From the NCBI GenBank assembly GCA_945876935.1, contig CAMCQA010000003.1:7008-71007 (forward strand): DNA of 64,000 nt, written 5' to 3'. The notes below the pieces were generated by a model. The model was not told the origin of the DNA, ran no database searches, and saw only the letters and a program-made list of their open reading frames with translations. Of the stretch, positions 6,902 to 57,044 are shown in pieces; the stretch's first letter is position 1; the number at the start of each line of letters is the position of its first letter. This stretch comes from an uncultured Clostridia bacterium (GTDB lineage: Bacteria; Bacillota; Clostridia; Peptostreptococcales; Anaerovoracaceae). Made by a program: the position numbers and the translations under genes.

Positions 6902-8887
6902 TTATCCTTTAAAAAGCTGAATGGCTTCTTCTTCAGTTATAATTGGAATTCCAAGCTCCATAGCTTTCTTATTTTTAGATGATGTAGACAAATTATCATT
7001 ATTTATAAGATAATCAGTCTTGCTGCTAACTGAGCCAGCAACCTTTCCACCTAAACTCTCTATCTCTTCTTTAAGTTTATTTCTATTTTCATAATGGTTT
7101 AAAGAGCCTGTTATAACAAACGTCTTACCTTTTAAAGTCTGTGGGCTTTCTGAAATTACATCATTGAAATTCAATTCTCTTCTAAGTCTATTAACTAAAT
7201 CAGTATTTTTCTCATTTTTGAAATAGTTTGAAACTGAACTTGCCATAATGCTTCCAAAACCTTCTATTTGCTGAAGCTCTTCCTCACTAGCCATCATTAT
7301 CTTATCAAGCTCAAAGCTAAAATACTTAGCCATAAGTTTACTGTTTGAAACACCTATACCATCAATACCAAGAGCATATATAAATCTTGATAAAACTGTT
7401 TCTCTAGATTTATTTACTGAACCTATCAGTTTTGCATAAGACTTTTCTCCAAAACCTTCCATAGAAACAATAACTTCTTTATGCTTTTCAAGATGATATA
7501 TATCTACAAAATCTTTTATCAATCCTTTGCTCGCAAATTTTTCTAATGTAGCTTCAGAAAGGTTTTCTATGTTCATTGCATCTCTGCTTACAAAAAGAGC
7601 TAAAGACTTTATTTTTTTTGCTGGGCATTCATCATTTTTACAAATAAGAACTTCCACATCCATATCCTTTTGTAAAAATAAAGACGAATTGCAAGATGGA
7701 CATTTATCAGGAAGAATTACTTTACCTTTTCTAGTAAGATTATCAGCAATTTGAGGTATTATCATATTAGCTTTATATACCTTTATAGTATCTCCCTCTG
7801 AAAGTTGCAACTCTTTTAATATGCTAACATTATGAACAGAAGCTCTGGAGACAACAGTTCCCTCTAAATCTACTGGCTCAAATATGGCTATAGGGTTTAC
7901 TAACCCTGTTCTTGATGGACTCCACTCAATGTATTTCAAAGTCGTTTCTTTTATTTCATCCTGCCATTTAAAAGCTATAGCATTTCTTGGAAATTTAGAT
8001 GTTGTTCCAAGGCTTGCTCCATAAGCTATATCGTCATAGCATAAAACTAAACCATCTGACGGAATAGGAAAATCCTTTATTTTATTAGAAAAATTTTCTA
8101 TTGCACTTACAAGGTTTGCTTCATTTACAAGTGTATTTTCAACTACATCAAAACCTAAGTTTTCAAGCCATTTAAGTTGATTTGAAAAAGAGTTTCCTAT
8201 CTTAGCTTCATCCTTTATATCATTAAAGTTTCCTACTGAAAAAGCTCTAAAGTTTACATTCCTTTTTGCGGTCATCTCTGAATTTAGCTGTCTTACAGAT
8301 CCACTTACCAGATTTCTAGGGTTCTTGTATTTTGCATCTACATCTTCTATCTCATCATTGATATTTTCAAAATCTTTATAAGTAATGTATGCTTCTCCTC
8401 TTATAACAAGTCTTTTCTTGAAGCTGATGTTAAGCGGTACGTTTTTAAAAGTCCTAGCATTAGATGTAACAACTTCTCCTATCTGACCGTTACCTCTGGT
8501 TACAGCTTTAGATAAAGAGCCATTTTCATAAGTTAAAACTACTGTAAGCCCATCTAATTTCCAAGATAAAACCCCTTCCTTATCTCCGAGCCATCCTCTT
8601 AAAGCTTCTCTATCTTTAGTCTTATCTAAAGATAACATAAGAGTATCATGCTCTTCTTTAGATAGAAAGTCAGAGACTTCATACCCTACTTTTTGAGTAG
8701 GGCTTGAAGATAAAATTATACCTGTCTCTTCTTCTAAAGCTAATAATTGATCGTACAGCTTATCATATTCAAAGTTGGACATTATTTCCTTATCAAATTT
8801 ATAATAAGCTTTGTTTGCATCATCTAAAACCTTGACCAGATTTTTCATTTCTTCTACTTTTTCTGCAGTAGTACTAATATTTTTCAA
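6902..8887 (-). CDS. ligA: NAD-dependent DNA ligase
   Basis: KLDG adenylation motif, RGNG, C4 zinc finger, HhH repeats, C-terminal BRCT; TTG start after AAGGAG. Confidence 0.97.
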   Translation of the reverse strand: MKNISTTAEKVEEMKNLVKVLDDANKAYYKFDKEIMSNFEYDKLYDQLLALEEETGIILSSSPTQKVGYEVSDFLSKEEHDTLMLSLDKTKDREALRGWLGDKEGVLSWKLDGLTVVLTYENGSLSKAVTRGNGQIGEVVTSNARTFKNVPLNISFKKRLVIRGEAYITYKDFENINDEIEDVDAKYKNPRNLVSGSVRQLNSEMTAKRNVNFRAFSVGNFNDIKDEAKIGNSFSNQLKWLENLGFDVVENTLVNEANLVSAIENFSNKIKDFPIPSDGLVLCYDDIAYGASLGTTSKFPRNAIAFKWQDEIKETTLKYIEWSPSRTGLVNPIAIFEPVDLEGTVVSRASVHNVSILKELQLSEGDTIKVYKANMIIPQIADNLTRKGKVILPDKCPSCNSSLFLQKDMDVEVLICKNDECPAKKIKSLALFVSRDAMNIENLSEATLEKFASKGLIKDFVDIYHLEKHKEVIVSMEGFGEKSYAKLIGSVNKSRETVLSRFIYALGIDGIGVSNSKLMAKYFSFELDKIMMASEEELQQIEGFGSIMASSVSNYFKNEKNTDLVNRLRRELNFNDVISESPQTLKGKTFVITGSLNHYENRNKLKEEIESLGGKVAGSVSSKTDYLINNDNLSTSSKNKKAMELGIPIITEEEAIQLFKG

Positions 8888-51213: not shown

Positions 51214-52044
51214 TTATATATTTTGTGGCGCTAAATGATTTACAGACCACTGACCTTCACCTATGGCTAGTTCCTGTGATAAAACAAGGTTCATATATTT
51301 TTTAGCTAGCTTAACACTATCTTCCATGGATAGTCCTTTTGCAAGGTTAGTAGCAATAGCGGAAGATAAGCAGCATCCTGTACCATGAGTATTTCTACTT
51401 TTTATTCTAGGTGCCTCTATCCACAAACCCTTTCCTCTATAAAAAAGATAGTCTCTTGCATAGGATTCATCTCTATTCTGTTCGCTTAAATCAGCTTTTG
51501 TATGTCCGCCTTTAATTAGTACGCCTCCTCTTACCATTCTAGAAATTTTTTCAGCAGCGAGCTCAGTTTCATAATCGTTATCAATACTCATTTCTGATAA
51601 AAATTCTGCTTCAGAAAGATTCGGAGTAAGTAAGTCCACTTGTGGCATAAGGCTACTTTTTATTTCTTCTATGGATTCTTTTGAAGATAAGAGAACTCCA
51701 CTAGAAGAAACTAAAACAGGGTCATAAACTATGTTTTTTTGTTGCTCATTTGAAAGTTTTAAAGCTAATGATTCTGCTGTATCTTTACTGTATATCATAC
51801 CTATTTTTACACTATCAGGTCTTATATCTTCATATATTGCGTTCAGTTGACTCTCAAACATATCTATACATACTGGAATGACCTTATATACAGACTTTGT
51901 ATTTTGAGCTGTAAGAGCTGATATTACAGCCATAGCATATGCTCCATGATTGTGTATCGTCTTAATATCTCCCTGTATCCCTGCTCCACCACTAGGGTCT
52001 GAGCCAGCCACAGATAAAACTTTTGCAACTTCTATTTTATTCAT
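51214..52044 (-). CDS. thiD: HMP/HMP-P kinase
   Basis: AGSDPSGGAGIQGDIKT, VKIGM, DPVLVSSSG, TPNLSEA, HGTGC. Confidence 0.95.
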   Translation of the reverse strand: MNKIEVAKVLSVAGSDPSGGAGIQGDIKTIHNHGAYAMAVISALTAQNTKSVYKVIPVCIDMFESQLNAIYEDIRPDSVKIGMIYSKDTAESLALKLSNEQQKNIVYDPVLVSSSGVLLSSKESIEEIKSSLMPQVDLLTPNLSEAEFLSEMSIDNDYETELAAEKISRMVRGGVLIKGGHTKADLSEQNRDESYARDYLFYRGKGLWIEAPRIKSRNTHGTGCCLSSAIATNLAKGLSMEDSVKLAKKYMNLVLSQELAIGEGQWSVNHLAPQNI

Positions 52045-52709
52045 AGTTTCTCTCCAAGCAAAGCCTCTACTTCTTTTAATATTAGTCTACAGTGAGATTT
52101 TATCTCACAAATATCTTTAGAGTAAATATCAGATATAATAGCAACACCATTTGTATTATAACTTTCTAATAATTTAATATTCTCAAAAGTTATTCCACCT
52201 ATTGCGACAATCGGTATGTCAACTGTGTGGCTTATTTCCTTAAATACTTCTGGTTTTATAGCATCTGCATCTAGCTTCGTTTCTGTTGAAAATACTGCTC
52301 CTACACCTATATAATCGGCACCTTTATTTTGCGCCTCAACAGCTTCCCTTAGATTTCCTGCCGATACGCCTATAACGGATAAGGATCCTAAAACTTCTCT
52401 TGCAAAGTTTATGCTATCATCATCTTGCCCTAAATGTACCCCGTCAGCACCTACACGCTTAGCAACCTCTATATTATCATTGACAATGAATAAAGCATTG
52501 TATTTATGACATAACTTCTTTATACGAGTAGCCTCTTCAATCATGCTATCTATGTCCATATTTTTTTCTCTCATTTGAACGATACCAACACCGCCCTTTA
52601 GGGATTCTTCTATTTTAGCATAAAAGGTTTCGTCTGAATCGCTCCATCTTCTATCAGTTATTGCATATAGCTTAATTTTCTCATAATCAAGATTTCTAAA
52701 CGATTTCAT
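52041..52709 (-). CDS. thiE: Thiamine-phosphate synthase
   Basis: LYAITDR, QMREK, IVND, GVHLGQDD, VAIGGI. Start 52709 follows an AGGAG RBS and overlaps the thiM stop. Confidence 0.95.
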   Translation of the reverse strand: MKSFRNLDYEKIKLYAITDRRWSDSDETFYAKIEESLKGGVGIVQMREKNMDIDSMIEEATRIKKLCHKYNALFIVNDNIEVAKRVGADGVHLGQDDDSINFAREVLGSLSVIGVSAGNLREAVEAQNKGADYIGVGAVFSTETKLDADAIKPEVFKEISHTVDIPIVAIGGITFENIKLLESYNTNGVAIISDIYSKDICEIKSHCRLILKEVEALLGEKL

Positions 52710-53529
52710 ATCTTCCTCTCTCCTTGAAAATAGCTTCATCTATCTCACTCATAGCATCTATAAGTTTTATGCCATAACTGCCGCAGGACTGATTTTCATG
52801 TAAATTTTCATAAGCAAGCTCACCGCTTATGCCCATAGTTATAACTGCAGAAACTGACGCTTCAAAAATACAATCAGGATTGGCAGAAATAAAGGCTGCT
52901 ACCACGCTGGATAACTGACATCCCGAGCCTGTGATTTTTTCCATCATAGAATGTCCATTGAAAACCCTAACTATGCTTCTTCCATCTGAAATAATATCAA
53001 CCTCCCCTGTCGTTATCACTACTGCATCAAGCTCTTTTGCAAGCTCTCTTGTCATAAATTCGGCAGAAGATAAACTCAAATGCTTCTTATCTTCTTCAGA
53101 AACATCCACACCTTTGCTGTGATGCTTTTTCTCCCAAATAGACCTTATTTCAGAAAGATTTCCCTTTATAACATCAGGTTTAATTTTTTTCAAAATATTC
53201 ATAGCTACTTCAAATCTAAATTTTGAAGCGCCTACTCCTACGGGATCGAACACGATTGGGTGATCGAGCCTTTTAGCAGTTTCACCAGCTCTTAGAATTG
53301 ACTCTATTCTATTGCTATTAATTGTCCCTATATTAATATTCAAGCCTTTTGATATGCTCTGTATATCCTCAACTTCCATAATTTCATCAGCCATTACAGG
53401 CGATGCTCCACATGCTAAAGTGATATTAGCACATGGGTTTGCTGTAACATAATTTGTTATATTGTGAACTAAGGGCGATATATTTTTAACTCTAGCTATA
53501 GCATCCCAAAGAGCTTGAAAATCTATCAT
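52696..53529 (-). CDS. thiM: Hydroxyethylthiazole kinase
   Basis: PLVHNITNYV, GASPVMA, DPVGVGAS, IKGNLSE, ITGSGC. Confidence 0.95.
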   Translation of the reverse strand: MIDFQALWDAIARVKNISPLVHNITNYVTANPCANITLACGASPVMADEIMEVEDIQSISKGLNINIGTINSNRIESILRAGETAKRLDHPIVFDPVGVGASKFRFEVAMNILKKIKPDVIKGNLSEIRSIWEKKHHSKGVDVSEEDKKHLSLSSAEFMTRELAKELDAVVITTGEVDIISDGRSIVRVFNGHSMMEKITGSGCQLSSVVAAFISANPDCIFEASVSAVITMGISGELAYENLHENQSCGSYGIKLIDAMSEIDEAIFKERGRYEIV

Positions 53530-53541
53530 TGTGTATTCTCC

Positions 53542-54051
53542 TTATCTAAGTTCTTCCTGCATTTTAGGAAGAACTCCCATTTTATCAAGAGATATAGCAA
53601 GTATACCTGCTATAACACTTCCTGCAACAGTAGAAATTAAAAACGGTGTTACATATACATAAAAAGCTAATTCTCCACCTTTTCCCATAATAAGAGTCGC
53701 AACAGGGTAAGCAAGAAGTCCTCCGATAATACCAGTTCCTACTATCTCTCCTACAACAGCCGCTGTTACACTTTTAGTTTTGCTATAAAGTGTACTACTT
53801 AAAAAGGCGCCTATCATACTCCCTGGGAAAGCTAGCAAGCTACCCAATCCTAGAATATTTCTAAGAACACTAGCTGAAAAGGCTACGCTAACACCGTAGT
53901 ATCTTCCCAATAAAACTGCACACATAACATTTACAAAATGTTGTACAGGTGCACATTTACTAGCTAATACAGGAAATGTAATAAAGCTACCTACAACGCA
54001 AAGTCCGCATAAAAGACTTGCTAAAACCAATTTTTTACTGTTCTTGTTCAT
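53542..54051 (-). CDS. thiW: ECF transporter S-component ThiW (thiazole precursor uptake)
   Basis: PVQHFVNV, LRNILGLGSLLAFPGSMIGA, GEIVGTGIIG; first gene of the thi operon. Confidence 0.92.
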   Translation of the reverse strand: MNKNSKKLVLASLLCGLCVVGSFITFPVLASKCAPVQHFVNVMCAVLLGRYYGVSVAFSASVLRNILGLGSLLAFPGSMIGAFLSSTLYSKTKSVTAAVVGEIVGTGIIGGLLAYPVATLIMGKGGELAFYVYVTPFLISTVAGSVIAGILAISLDKMGVLPKMQEELR

Positions 54052-54069
54052 CTTTAACTCCTTTACATA

Positions 54070-54221
54070 GGAAATCGTATAACAGAACGATTTCCAAAAA
54101 ATAAAAATATCTTGGTCGGTCGAAACTTAAGGTTTCCTCTCACGCCGCAACACGGCTTCCCATCGCTGTTATACAAGACCTATAGACGCTCCTCTAAGGT
54201 CCGCTACTCTCGTAGATATTT
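54070..54221 (-). ncRNA. Second cis-regulatory RNA element: TPP-like half aptamer plus switchable hairpin (candidate novel riboswitch)
   Basis: Closing stem 54214-54221/54105-54112; UGAGAGG-GAAAC/GUUUC-GACC module; 13-bp alternative pairing (54162-54174 with 54077-54091) competes with hairpin 54070-54095. Confidence 0.6.
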
Positions 54222-54265
54222 CCTGCAATAGAGTTTATACAATAAAGCAGAATTTTTTAATATAA

Positions 54266-54289
54266 AACAGGGCCCTGATAGAGCCCTGT
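54266..54289 (-). terminator. Attenuator terminator of the TPP riboswitch
   Basis: ACAGGGCUC-UAUCA-GGGCCCUGU followed by UUUAUAUU. Confidence 0.8.
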
Positions 54290-54291
54290 AA

Positions 54292-54392
54292 AAAACATCT
54301 TTGTTCCTACGACGGCATTATCCGTATCAGGTATATGGGTCGAGACTCTATTGTCTCCTCTCAGCCTGATATACAAGCTCCCCGGTTTTATT
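54292..54392 (-). ncRNA. TPP riboswitch
   Basis: GGGGAGC..GCUGAGAGG-P3a-GACCC-AUAU-ACCUGAU-ACGG-AUAAUG-CCGU-CGUAGG; all canonical motifs present upstream of thiamine genes. Confidence 0.95.
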
Positions 54393-54406
54393 ATCATTGT
54401 AATATA

Positions 54407-55429
54407 TTACTTAAATTTTCTTCTTCTGTTTAGAGCACTCTTCTGTAATACATCTATATTTTCAAGAGCTCTACCTGTTCCAACTGCCACACAGTTCATA
54501 GGATTTTCAGCTATCTTAACATTGATACCTGTTCTATTTCTTATTCTCTCATCTATACCGTACAGTAGAGCACCTCCACCTGTAACTATGATTCCACTAT
54601 TGCTTATATCTGCAGCAAGCTCCGGTGGTGTTTTTTCTAAAACAGAGTGAATAGCTTCACATATAGCATGCAAAGGTTCTTCCAAGGCTTCTAGCATATC
54701 TGTAGATGTAACTGTAACCTCTCTTGGAAGACCTGTAACAAGGTCTCTTCCACTACAAACAGCAGTAAGCTCTTCGTCTCTTTTCCAAGCAGTTCCTATT
54801 TCTTTCTTTAGCTTTTCAGCCATTCTTTCACCGATGTAAAGTCTGTTCTTCTTTCTCATGAACTTGACGATAGCCTCGTCCATTCTATCTCCAGCAACTT
54901 TCAAAGATGTACTTGCAACTATACCACCTAATGAAATTACAGCTACGTCAGATGTTCCTCCGCCTATATCAACAACGAAAATCCCCTCTGGTCTAGATAC
55001 ATCAAGATCAGCACCTATAGCTGCTGCTAAAGGCTCTTCCATTAGAAATACATCTTTTCCTCCAGCCTGTGCTGCTGCTTCTCTAACAGCCCTTTTCTCA
55101 ACTTCAGTTACACCACTAGGAACACAAACCATTATTCTTGGCTTGAAAAATCTTCCTTTACCTACAGTTTTTCTTATGAAGTATTTAAGCATTCTCTCAG
55201 TAACATCGTAGTCTGAGATTACACCATCTCTCAAAGGTCTAAGAGCAATAATATTGGCAGGAGTTCTACCTAACATTTCTTTAGCTTCCTGTCCCACAGC
55301 TAGGATTTCATCCGTTTCTTCATCTACTGCAACAACGGAAGGTTCTTCTAAAACAACTCCCTTACCTTTTATATATACAAGTACGTTTGCCGTACCTAAG
55401 TCGATTCCTACTTCTTCTGTAAATGCCAT
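54407..55429 (-). CDS. mbl: MreB paralogue (Mbl)
   Basis: GIDLGTANV, RPLRDGVISDY, VPSGVTEVEKRAV, DIGGGTSD; stand-alone location; start after AGGAAGG. Confidence 0.88.
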   Translation of the reverse strand: MAFTEEVGIDLGTANVLVYIKGKGVVLEEPSVVAVDEETDEILAVGQEAKEMLGRTPANIIALRPLRDGVISDYDVTERMLKYFIRKTVGKGRFFKPRIMVCVPSGVTEVEKRAVREAAAQAGGKDVFLMEEPLAAAIGADLDVSRPEGIFVVDIGGGTSDVAVISLGGIVASTSLKVAGDRMDEAIVKFMRKKNRLYIGERMAEKLKKEIGTAWKRDEELTAVCSGRDLVTGLPREVTVTSTDMLEALEEPLHAICEAIHSVLEKTPPELAADISNSGIIVTGGGALLYGIDERIRNRTGINVKIAENPMNCVAVGTGRALENIDVLQKSALNRRRKFK

Positions 55430-55500: not shown

Positions 55501-55529
55501 ATTATAATGTAGAAATTAATAAAAATCAA
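55501..55529 (-). promoter_or_regulatory. Sigma-A promoter of mbl
   Basis: TTGATT (55524-55529), 17 bp spacer, TATAAT (55501-55506). Confidence 0.7.
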
Positions 55530-55623
55530 GATACTATGACAAGTATGACCGTTCTATCACTTACAATTAACATTTTTAAATCTAAGCACTCAATTTAGTC
55601 TTAAATAAAACCCTATATAAAGC

Positions 55624-55661
55624 AAAAAGAACCCTATAACACTCTCAGTTAAGGTTCTTTT
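55624..55661 (-). terminator. Terminator ending the cobalamin-riboswitch read-through transcript
   Basis: AAAAGAACCU-UAAC..GUUA-U-AGGGUUCUUUUU hairpin with U tract. Confidence 0.7.
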
Positions 55662-55810
55662 CTAGGAATTATAATTATTTTGAAGTGGACTTAAAGATAT
55701 GCGACGGGATGTATCATAATATTATCATGGAATTTTATTAACTTTGATTGTTTGTAGTTGTGTATTTTCGTTATTAAAACTTAATATTTAAGTACCTTAT
55801 CATCTGCAAT

Positions 55811-55835
55811 AAAAAAGCTCAACTTTTCGTTGAGC
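55811..55835 (-). terminator. Attenuator terminator of the cobalamin riboswitch
   Basis: GCUCAAC-GAAAA-GUUGAGC followed by UUUUUUAUU. Confidence 0.85.
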
Positions 55836-55888
55836 AAACAAAACTAGCCTATTTAAACTACTCTAATCCCATCGCTCGTAGAATTAAC

Positions 55889-55977
55889 TATCTTATACTG
55901 GTAATCTGACTTAGCCTAAGCTTCACAGTGGCGTGACCGTTCAAGAATTTCACTTGATTCCCCGTATGTATAAAATC
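55889..55977 (-). ncRNA. Cobalamin (B12) riboswitch, compact form
   Basis: GGGGAA, UCAAG-UGAAAUU-CUUGA hairpin, ACGGUCAC-GCCACUGUG, AAGUCAG; ends pair (AUUUUAUAC/GUAUAAGAU). Confidence 0.88.
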
Positions 55978-55995
55978 TATTGCATTGATAAGTCA

Positions 55996-56025
55996 ATTAT
56001 ACTATTAGTTTGTCAAAACTGTCAA
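55996..56025 (-). promoter_or_regulatory. Consensus sigma-A promoter driving the B12 riboswitch RNA
   Basis: TTGACA (56020-56025), 18 bp spacer, TATAAT (55996-56001). Confidence 0.78.
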
Positions 56026-56083: not shown

Positions 56084-56108
56084 AAAAAAGGAAGCTGAGC
56101 TTCCTTTT
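56084..56108 (-). terminator. Terminator after cysK
   Basis: AAAAGGAAGC-UCA-GCUUCCUUUUUU. Confidence 0.8.
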
Positions 56109-56114
56109 ATTTTT

Positions 56115-57044
56115 TTATTCTGCTGCGTCAAAAACTCCTGTCGAAAGATATCTTTCTCCTGTATCAGGTAAAAGAACTACAATGTTTTTACCTTCGTTTT
56201 CAACTCTTGAAGCAACTTCCTTCGCTGCAAAAGCAGCTGCTCCTGACGATATACCGCATAGTAAGCCTTCCTCCTTAGCTAAAGCTCTTGTAGCCTCCCA
56301 TGCATCCTCGTTTGATACATCAATTACTTCATCGTAAATATCTTCATTTAGAACACTAGGTATAAACCCTGCACTTATTCCAGGTATCTTATGAGGTCCT
56401 GCCACACCTTTTGTCAACAGAGGAGATGCAGCTGGCTCTACAGCTATAACTTTTATACTAGGATTTTTAGATTTTAAGTATTCTCCTATACCTGTAATAG
56501 TTCCACCAGATCCTATTCCAGCAATAAAGATGTCTACCTTGCCTTCTGTATCTTCCCAAATTTCTGGTCCAGTCATTTCTATATGAGCCTTTATATTATC
56601 TCTGTTATCAAACTGCCCAGCAATCCAAGAGCTTTCAATCTGCTCAGCCAACTCCTTTGACTTTGCAATAGAACCCTTCATTCCAAGAGCACCTTCTGTT
56701 AAAACAACTTCAGAGCCATAGGCTTTCATAAGATTCTGTCTCTCAACTGTCATTGTATCAGGCATAACTATTATAGTTCTATAACCTTTAGCTGCTGCTA
56801 TAGCAGATATACCTATACCTGTGTTTCCTGAAGTTGGCTCTATTATTGTGCTTCCTTCTTTAAGAATACCTTTCTTTTCAGCCTCTTCAATCATATATTT
56901 AGCTGCTCTATCTTTGACACTTCCAGTAGGATTACTTCTCTCAAGCTTAGCAATAATATGTCCCCCAACTTCTTTACCAAAGTTAGATAAATTCACTAAA
57001 GGAGTTCTTCCTACTAGATCACTTACATTCTTATATATTTTCAT
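56115..57044 (-). CDS. cysK: Cysteine synthase A
   Basis: PLP lysine motif NPTGSVKDR, PTSGNTG, GIGSGGT, LPDTGERYLST. Confidence 0.95.
   Translation of the reverse strand: MKIYKNVSDLVGRTPLVNLSNFGKEVGGHIIAKLERSNPTGSVKDRAAKYMIEEAEKKGILKEGSTIIEPTSGNTGIGISAIAAAKGYRTIIVMPDTMTVERQNLMKAYGSEVVLTEGALGMKGSIAKSKELAEQIESSWIAGQFDNRDNIKAHIEMTGPEIWEDTEGKVDIFIAGIGSGGTITGIGEYLKSKNPSIKVIAVEPAASPLLTKGVAGPHKIPGISAGFIPSVLNEDIYDEVIDVSNEDAWEATRALAKEEGLLCGISSGAAAFAAKEVASRVENEGKNIVVLLPDTGERYLSTGVFDAAE

Follow-up and report, generated by a model that had tools for sequence, protein, structure and literature searches.

A cobalamin riboswitch unit without a gene in an uncultured Anaerovoracaceae species: a possible B12-gated antisense RNA to the leader of an nhaC gene

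What might a cobalamin (B12) riboswitch control when no gene follows it? Gene-less cobalamin riboswitches are usually left without a nameable target, and the question arises again in a 64,000-nucleotide stretch of DNA from an uncultured Clostridia bacterium of the family Anaerovoracaceae (the window; positions 7,008 to 71,007 of contig CAMCQA010000003.1, assembly GCA_945876935.1), where a whole riboswitch unit is held in the 688-bp gap between cysK and mbl, on the minus strand. The original prediction for this locus, made from the sequence itself, had hesitated between a B12-controlled small RNA and the scar of a deleted gene. We propose, with a rough probability of 0.45, that the unit is a functional, stand-alone, B12-gated antisense regulator of nhaC, a transporter gene located on another contig of the same genome. 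What would be new here is the combination of a concrete target in trans with a simple gate. Throughout this text, coordinates are window positions and the unit is read on the minus strand; the genome under study is labelled G000, and its other contigs are given as C2, C11, C22, and C36.

The gene-less B12 riboswitch unit is a genuine feature of this genome (1.29 Mb, 34% GC, 98.8% complete). Its 711 bases show no differences across three independent Logan assemblies, and an assembly artefact is therefore out of the question. The unit opens with a sigma-70 type promoter, TTGACA-18-TATAAT (55996-56025), which matches the consensus at 12 of 12 positions, and transcription would start near 55989, judging from the distance to this promoter. 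The promoter is followed by an adenosylcobalamin (AdoCbl) aptamer of the compact type (55856-55988), whose best family is RF01482, in clan CL00101. It reaches 53.3 bits against this model (gathering score 50; E 6.9e-9 in a local scan), covering it in full from position 1 to 149, and 31.5 bits against RF00174, which is exactly the cut-off of that family. The B12 box reads CGCCACUGUGA, and the core nucleotides GGAA, GUGAAAUUC, ACGGUCACGCCACUGUGA, and AAGUCAG agree with the consensus in the cmscan alignment. By its score and its conserved core, the element belongs to the cobalamin riboswitch clan CL00101, with AdoCbl as its presumable ligand.

The aptamer is predicted to be coupled to an expression platform that responds to the ligand. 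Within the aptamer model lies the 3' regulatory hairpin P13 (55885-55865; AAUUCU/ACGAGCGAU/GGGAUU), whose loop motif, UUCUACGAGCGAUGG, is also present in the compact type of cobalamin riboswitch that, in a different genus of the family (L016 and L022), lies upstream of secreted-protein genes. A similar motif is found in the cbiM leaders of G002 and G004, which are two other species of the same genus. Since this loop motif recurs in cis-acting homologues, P13 can be regarded as a conserved regulatory element and not as noise. The loop and the 3' arm of P13, together with the first 4 nt of the terminator stem that comes after them, are also used by a predicted antiterminator (55832-55877), in which 55877-55863 (GAGCGAUGGGAUUAG) would pair with 55847-55832 (CUAGUUUUGUUUGCUC) to form a helix of 15 bp and -14.0 kcal/mol when folded without the 3' arm of the terminator. 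The latter, the attenuator T1 (55811-55835), consists of a 7-bp stem at 55835-55817 (GCUCAAC-GAAAA-GUUGAGC; -10.9 kcal/mol) followed by U6, and marks the predicted end of a short RNA of ~180 nt. Because the antiterminator overlaps both P13 and T1, the three structures are mutually exclusive, an arrangement that, as modelled, is typical of OFF switches.

Beyond T1, a read-through transcript would include an antisense extension, discussed below, and an AT-rich remainder (55662-55745) with no open reading frame (ORF) and no recognised motif, before reaching a second terminator, T2 (55620-55661). The arms of T2 (55661-55650 and 55636-55625) are followed by UUUUUGC, its energy is -13.7 to -16.3 kcal/mol, and it marks the predicted end of a long RNA of ~370 nt; a simple terminator scanner overlooked it because of a bulge in the stem. 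The 3' arm of T2 and its U-tract are tandemly repeated 21 nt further on (55603-55617; TATAGGGTTCTTTTT and TATAGGGTTTTATTT on the minus strand), and the stretch 55603-55638 therefore offers two alternative partners for one 5' arm. This doubled arm is the only direct repeat around the unit, and no convincing flanking repeats of the kind that would suggest a mobile insertion were found. There is no ORF of at least 20 aa on the minus strand between the aptamer and mbl, and no Rfam family fits the read-through extension. The fold of the whole unit is not more stable than those of its shuffles (z = -1.24), which gives no support either way. The features by which a trans-encoded small RNA is recognised, namely a promoter of its own, an intrinsic terminator, and no coding capacity, are thus all present in the sequence.

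Much of this architecture had been described in the original prediction, and its perfect promoter, its attenuator at 55811-55835, its second terminator at 55624-55661, its gap containing ATG frames of just 4-9 codons with no convincing ribosome-binding site, and its two predicted RNAs of about 180 and 365 nt were all recovered. So were the separate promoter of mbl and the terminator that closes cysK, to which we return below. The aptamer, which had been placed at 55889-55977, is indeed present; its extent had to be widened, as the covariance model takes in P1 and the 3' regulatory hairpin.

The putative target emerges from the sequence that lies past T1. When the read-through segment was searched with BLAST against its own genome, one match stood out (25 of 26 positions, E 1.4e-5), at C22:11891-11916, in the orientation in which the RNA is complementary to the plus strand of that site. 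The site is the 5' untranslated region (UTR) of the gene of a 493-aa NhaC-family antiporter (C22:11931-13412). The product of this gene reaches 427 bits against TIGR00931 (cut-off 370) and is also matched by PF03553; against an ArcD-type model it reaches 353 bits, under the cut-off of that model. The antisense extension (55746-55809) would be made only on read-through of T1: the antisense segment begins 19 nt past this terminator and lies entirely downstream of it, whereas the short form, from the transcription start to T1, has no run longer than 16 against a start region.

The predicted duplex with the nhaC leader comprises three helices. The core, helix B, joins 55792-55764 to positions -12 to -40 of nhaC through 29 contiguous base pairs, 27 of them Watson-Crick and 2 G.U; the sole mismatch of the 26-nt core in the BLAST alignment is one of these G.U pairs, and pairing is therefore kept. 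On one side, helix A (55803-55798 with -4 to +2; 6 bp) covers the A and the U of the start codon, and on the other, helix C is formed by 55759-55749 and positions -51 to -62. The Shine-Dalgarno sequence of nhaC, AGGAGAA, sits in an internal loop of the duplex, with the core pairing stopping 1 nt away from it. The core duplex has an energy of -29.4 kcal/mol and the opening of the sites costs 4.4 each, which leaves a net value of -20.6 kcal/mol; the extended duplex has a total of -42 kcal/mol.

Several comparisons bear on whether such complementarity could arise by chance. Among the 1155 predicted start regions of the genome, nhaC ranks first with its run of 29, and the runner-up has a run of 15. 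Shuffling the 150-nt body 200 times at the dinucleotide level gave best runs of 14-22 against any start region. As a natural control, all 150-nt intergenic segments were taken in both orientations (n=1566), and the body of the unit again ranked first, followed by one segment with a run of 26, three with 25, and a few with 24. By these sequence comparisons, the complementarity to the nhaC start region appears to exceed chance. With as many as 6 mismatches tolerated, the 26-nt core still occurs just twice in the genome, and for this reason a dispersed repeat or a common operator site was rejected.

The origin of the extension seems to lie in nhaC itself. In a local alignment with the upstream region of nhaC, the unit scores 61 when that region is reverse-complemented and 21 in the same orientation, and the former alignment spans from the U-tract of T1, opposite an A-run in codons 2-4 of nhaC, to the -10 region of nhaC, with both flanks collinear with the core (each p ~0.02). 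The extension is an imperfect antisense copy, ~95 nt long, of the whole nhaC 5' UTR and start codon, including the 29-bp core, as if the nhaC leader of this species had been copied in inverted orientation. The promoter, the 5' end, and the Shine-Dalgarno region of nhaC are common to G004 and G002, where the target site differs, and since these parts of the leader are shared, the nhaC leader is the ancestral copy. The 26-nt core is intact, whereas substitutions and indels have accumulated in the flanks and the stretch opposite the Shine-Dalgarno sequence has been replaced. An intact core between decayed flanks is the pattern expected from selection for pairing, which it weakly suggests, in one lineage. 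A young, B12-gated antisense RNA that acts in trans and was born recently by inverted duplication of the leader of its target would account for these features, and we advance this origin tentatively.

The mechanism that we propose would start at the aptamer. With AdoCbl bound, P13 would be held, the antiterminator would be blocked, and T1 would stop the RNA at ~180 nt, without the seed. With AdoCbl absent, the antiterminator would form and the polymerase would reach T2, giving rise to the ~370-nt RNA. Only this long RNA would pair with the nhaC leader, beside the Shine-Dalgarno sequence and over the AUG, where it might block initiation by preventing 30S binding, offer a 29-bp substrate to RNase III, or both; RNase III is encoded in the genome. 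The net effect would be a transporter produced mainly under AdoCbl availability. In this scheme, the elements of the unit, their competing folds, and the rarity of the complementarity come from sequence and computation; we infer that the unit is transcribed and responds to B12, that the two RNAs pair inside the cell, in which direction the pairing acts, and what the transporter carries.

As for the physiological rationale, the genome encodes an AdoCbl-dependent ornithine pathway, with OraE (1387 bits, cut-off 800) and Ord (495 bits) identified by profile and OrtA, OrtB, and OraS assigned from gene position, as well as a MetH-like protein. These genes form a complete cluster of ornithine oxidative degradation, ord-ortA-ortB-oraS-oraE, at C2:24983-33171; it is preceded by genes for a putative sigma-54-type activator and an EamA-family transporter, as read from the translations, and no cobalamin riboswitch was found near it. 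NhaC-family carriers include an arginine/ornithine exchanger of Halobacterium (PMC5300872), and NhaC-family genes are under the control of lysine riboswitches in Firmicutes (PMC11477304). A basic-amino-acid carrier made only when AdoCbl is present would, by analogy, mirror the logic of eut regulation, which we offer as a conjecture. If this holds, the availability of AdoCbl would be tied to an NhaC-family carrier, possibly of basic amino acids, in an ornithine fermenter with an AdoCbl-dependent aminomutase (D-ornithine 4,5-aminomutase), and an uncharacterised member of the family would join the B12 regulon of an oral/gut amino-acid fermenter, with a hint at its substrate.

A number of observations weigh against the proposal that the unit is a functional antisense regulator of nhaC. 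The flank homology is of marginal significance. About 6% of 216-nt intergenic segments show a non-self BLAST match of at least 44 bits when orientation and location are ignored, and the duplex between the small RNA and nhaC is strongly AT-rich. The promoter of nhaC (TTGCAT-16-TGcTATAAT) and its transcription start were set by eye, and the scanner made no such call. The unit has been seen in one species only, all four assemblies being identical, and when the riboswitch units of relatives were compared with their own nhaC leaders, no match was obtained (runs of at most 15). What the transporter carries, and how it would be linked to B12, is conjectural. Finally, one rearrangement that fused an inverted piece of nhaC to a riboswitch leader would give the same complementarity without any selected function.

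This last point leads to the main rival explanation, which we consider less likely: that the unit is evolutionary debris without a selected function, a B12 leader that was severed from its operon or duplicated, in a lineage where such switches come and go quickly, and then fused to a piece of the nhaC leader in inverted orientation. Its RNA may still be made, and the match to nhaC would be a by-product. The distribution of the unit speaks for this possibility. It is confined to one species, and neither the seven other species of the genus nor the metagenome and genome collections that were searched contain it; a 26-mer search of a genome contig collection did not find it, and at the DNA level the 40 relatives compared gave nothing beyond generic matches to the aptamer core. 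Exact-protein look-ups with Mbl, PPIase, and NhaC returned identical contigs only, all from one study. Among named relatives, Eubacterium brachy ATCC 33089 is the closest (CysK 74% identical), and a CysK search of metagenome and genome collections gave no nearer one. E. brachy is the only one of the seven other species where cysK stands directly upstream of mbl, and there the junction lacks the unit: the spacer of 279 bp cannot be aligned with it and has no Rfam match. The number of cobalamin riboswitches varies in the genus from 0 to 9: this genome has 9, four relatives have 5, 4, 2, and 1, and E. brachy and a further two have none. Two more gene-less units made of a riboswitch and a terminator exist in this genome (C36:3227 and C11:20757). 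Moreover, the junction between the U-tract of T1 and the nhaC-like sequence falls on the A-run of nhaC codons 2-4, as in a microhomology-like join.

Set against this, all the parts of the unit are intact, from the 12/12 promoter and the aptamer that scores over its cut-off to P13, the antiterminator, and the two terminators. The 26-nt core is 96% identical between flanks that have decayed and bear indels, and its single change keeps the pairing. In addition, a 29-bp duplex with a net energy of -20.6 kcal/mol should, however it arose, have an effect if the two RNAs were made. A different kind of relic, left by the loss of a B12 transporter gene, had been suggested by the original prediction, together with a comparison of the cysK-mbl region for an intervening btu, cbi, or ECF gene. 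Nothing that was found supports this: none of the seven other species has such a gene there, no gene of any kind occupies the position of the unit in any relative examined, the E. brachy junction is empty, and the sequence after T1 is related to the inverted nhaC leader and not to a transporter coding region. The alternative offered alongside it, a B12-controlled small RNA, has gained strength from the complete predicted switch and from an antisense match confined to the read-through RNA; the prediction of targets, also suggested there, led to the nhaC leader and its 29-bp run.

A B12-gated RNA could also act in another way, by sequestering a protein or by reaching another target with those parts of its body that are rich in CA or in C, which we regard as improbable. 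The best known precedents are EutX from Enterococcus faecalis and Rli55 from Listeria monocytogenes, two riboswitch-gated non-coding RNAs of which the long form appears only when B12 is lacking and, through a dual hairpin, sequesters EutV (PMC8237595). The eut-associated riboswitches of these two species belong to class IIb and are selective for AdoCbl (PMC11477304). By sequence, the unit resembles them in several respects: a promoter of its own, a compact AdoCbl aptamer with RF01482 as its best-scoring family, an inner terminator gated by B12, and, after the extension, a second terminator. The eut-associated aptamers of Enterococcus and Listeria are the basis of family RF01482, which we equate with class IIb. 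However, EutX and Rli55 are sponges for an ANTAR regulator and sit in eut loci, whereas this unit lies between cysK and mbl and its extension carries antisense complementarity to an mRNA. No A-N-N-G-N-N hexaloop closed by a stem of at least 3 bp was found anywhere in 55600-55995, EutB (PF06751) is absent from the genome (the control was matched in E. coli), no protein of the genome matches a rough ANTAR consensus, and its four REC-domain proteins are all of the OmpR type by their C-terminal motifs. The EutX/Rli55 mechanism was rejected on these grounds, that is, no ANTAR hairpins, no ANTAR regulator found, and no eutB. As regards other targets, no further start region rises above chance, the next run being 15, and the lack of an Rfam family for the extension likewise speaks against this reading.

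Antisense action under a B12 riboswitch has its own precedent in AspocR from L. monocytogenes, a B12-riboswitch-controlled antisense RNA to pocR that is encoded opposite its target. As is proposed for the unit described here, a riboswitch sets an antisense extension, and the long form made at low B12 is directed against a gene whose pathway needs B12. The difference is that the target of AspocR is at the same locus, whereas here it lies on another contig and is matched by an imperfect copy. Cis-antisense action of the AspocR type was rejected, because the strand opposite T1-T2 has no gene and mbl is co-directional. Of the analogues named in the original prediction, neither this system, for want of an opposite-strand gene, nor EutX and Rli55, for want of an ANTAR hairpin, a regulator, and a eut locus, match the unit in mechanism.

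A third comparison is offered by SreA and SreB, the S-adenosylmethionine riboswitches of L. monocytogenes that act in trans on prfA. There too, an RNA derived from a riboswitch pairs with a distant mRNA in its 5' UTR. In the case of SreA, the terminated riboswitch is itself the regulator and a downstream operon is controlled as well, while in the unit the pairing segment lies past the terminator, the ligand would turn the regulator off, and there is no downstream operon. Compared with ordinary cobalamin riboswitches of clan CL00101, the unit shares the aptamer core, the B12 box, a P13-type hairpin, and the OFF logic. Its close homologues in the family precede genes for surface proteins, MoxR-like ATPases, CbiM, and ABC transporters, whereas no gene comes after the unit and a second terminator closes its transcript. 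If the antisense regulation of nhaC proves true, it would add a third mode of action to the two known for riboswitch-gated non-coding RNAs, the sequestration of a protein by EutX and Rli55 and the cis-antisense action of AspocR, and would give a rare view of the birth of a small RNA, with an inverted copy of the leader of the target placed behind an existing sensor.

Ordinary cis control, where read-through of both T1 and T2 would add B12-dependent transcription to mbl and the thiamine operon that follows it, is unlikely, and indeed very much so. The gene mbl (54407-55429, minus strand; MreB_Mbl, 474 bits by Pfam) is on the same strand, 190 nt past T2. Nonetheless, T2 is a good intrinsic terminator and mbl has a promoter of its own outside the unit (TTGATT-17-TATAAT, 55501-55529, minus strand; 10 of 12 consensus matches), and it is because these two elements intervene that such control is unlikely. 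In addition, mbl is found in the seven relatives without an upstream riboswitch, and we know of no link between MreB/Mbl and B12. Finally, a B12-controlled micropeptide of 4-9 codons is barely credible, since the three short ATG frames seen by eye within 55700-55805 (4, 8, and 9 codons) all lack a Shine-Dalgarno sequence and nothing reaches 20 aa.

On the other side of the unit, cysK (56115-57044, minus strand; PALP, 274.8 bits by Pfam) ends at a terminator detected by the terminator scan (56086-56108, minus strand), which lies outside the unit and isolates it from upstream transcription. After mbl, there is a thiamine pyrophosphate (TPP) riboswitch (54287-54390; 61.6 bits) with a thiW-thiM-thiE-thiD operon (window 51214-54400, minus strand). 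In all seven relatives, mbl is directly followed by a gene for a THUMP-type RNA methyltransferase, and no TPP riboswitch was found there. Since the unit upstream and the TPP/thi block downstream are both missing in the relatives, lineage-specific insertions flank mbl on both sides. Elsewhere in this genome, several cobalamin riboswitches precede a MoxR-like ATPase operon, the gene of an ABC binding protein, and genes for large proteins that are secreted or placed at the surface.

The two other gene-less units of this genome were also compared with the start regions; nothing exceptional was found (runs of at most 21), and the pairing pattern seen with nhaC does not generalise to them or to the units of relatives. 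One of them belongs to a second gene-less cobalamin unit that is shared between species of the genus, at G004:C3:58915-59414 (L212/L203 2416-2905), at G002:C14:74926-75420 (L206), and, in G000, at C11:20757-21110. It has a promoter, a classical aptamer (RF00174, 106-111 bits), and a terminator, AATACGGACTGTGG...CCACAGTTTTTTT. In G004 and G002, it carries an extension of ~230 nt that is 83% identical between them and forms three hairpins, where the differences look compensatory, and it ends at a bidirectional terminator shared with the convergent gene of a 346-aa membrane protein. This unit has no ORF in either species, and the rest of its genome gives no long match to the extension. The C11:20757 copy keeps the first hairpin only and faces a Mur-ligase gene. 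The third gene-less unit (C36:3227-3351, minus strand) consists of a compact cobalamin aptamer (RF01482, 38.5 bits; RF00174, 40.1 bits) and a terminator; ~30 nt further on, a convergent lexA gene (Peptidase_S24 and LexA_DNA_bind) has its bidirectional terminator, and a read-through transcript of this unit would be antisense to that gene.

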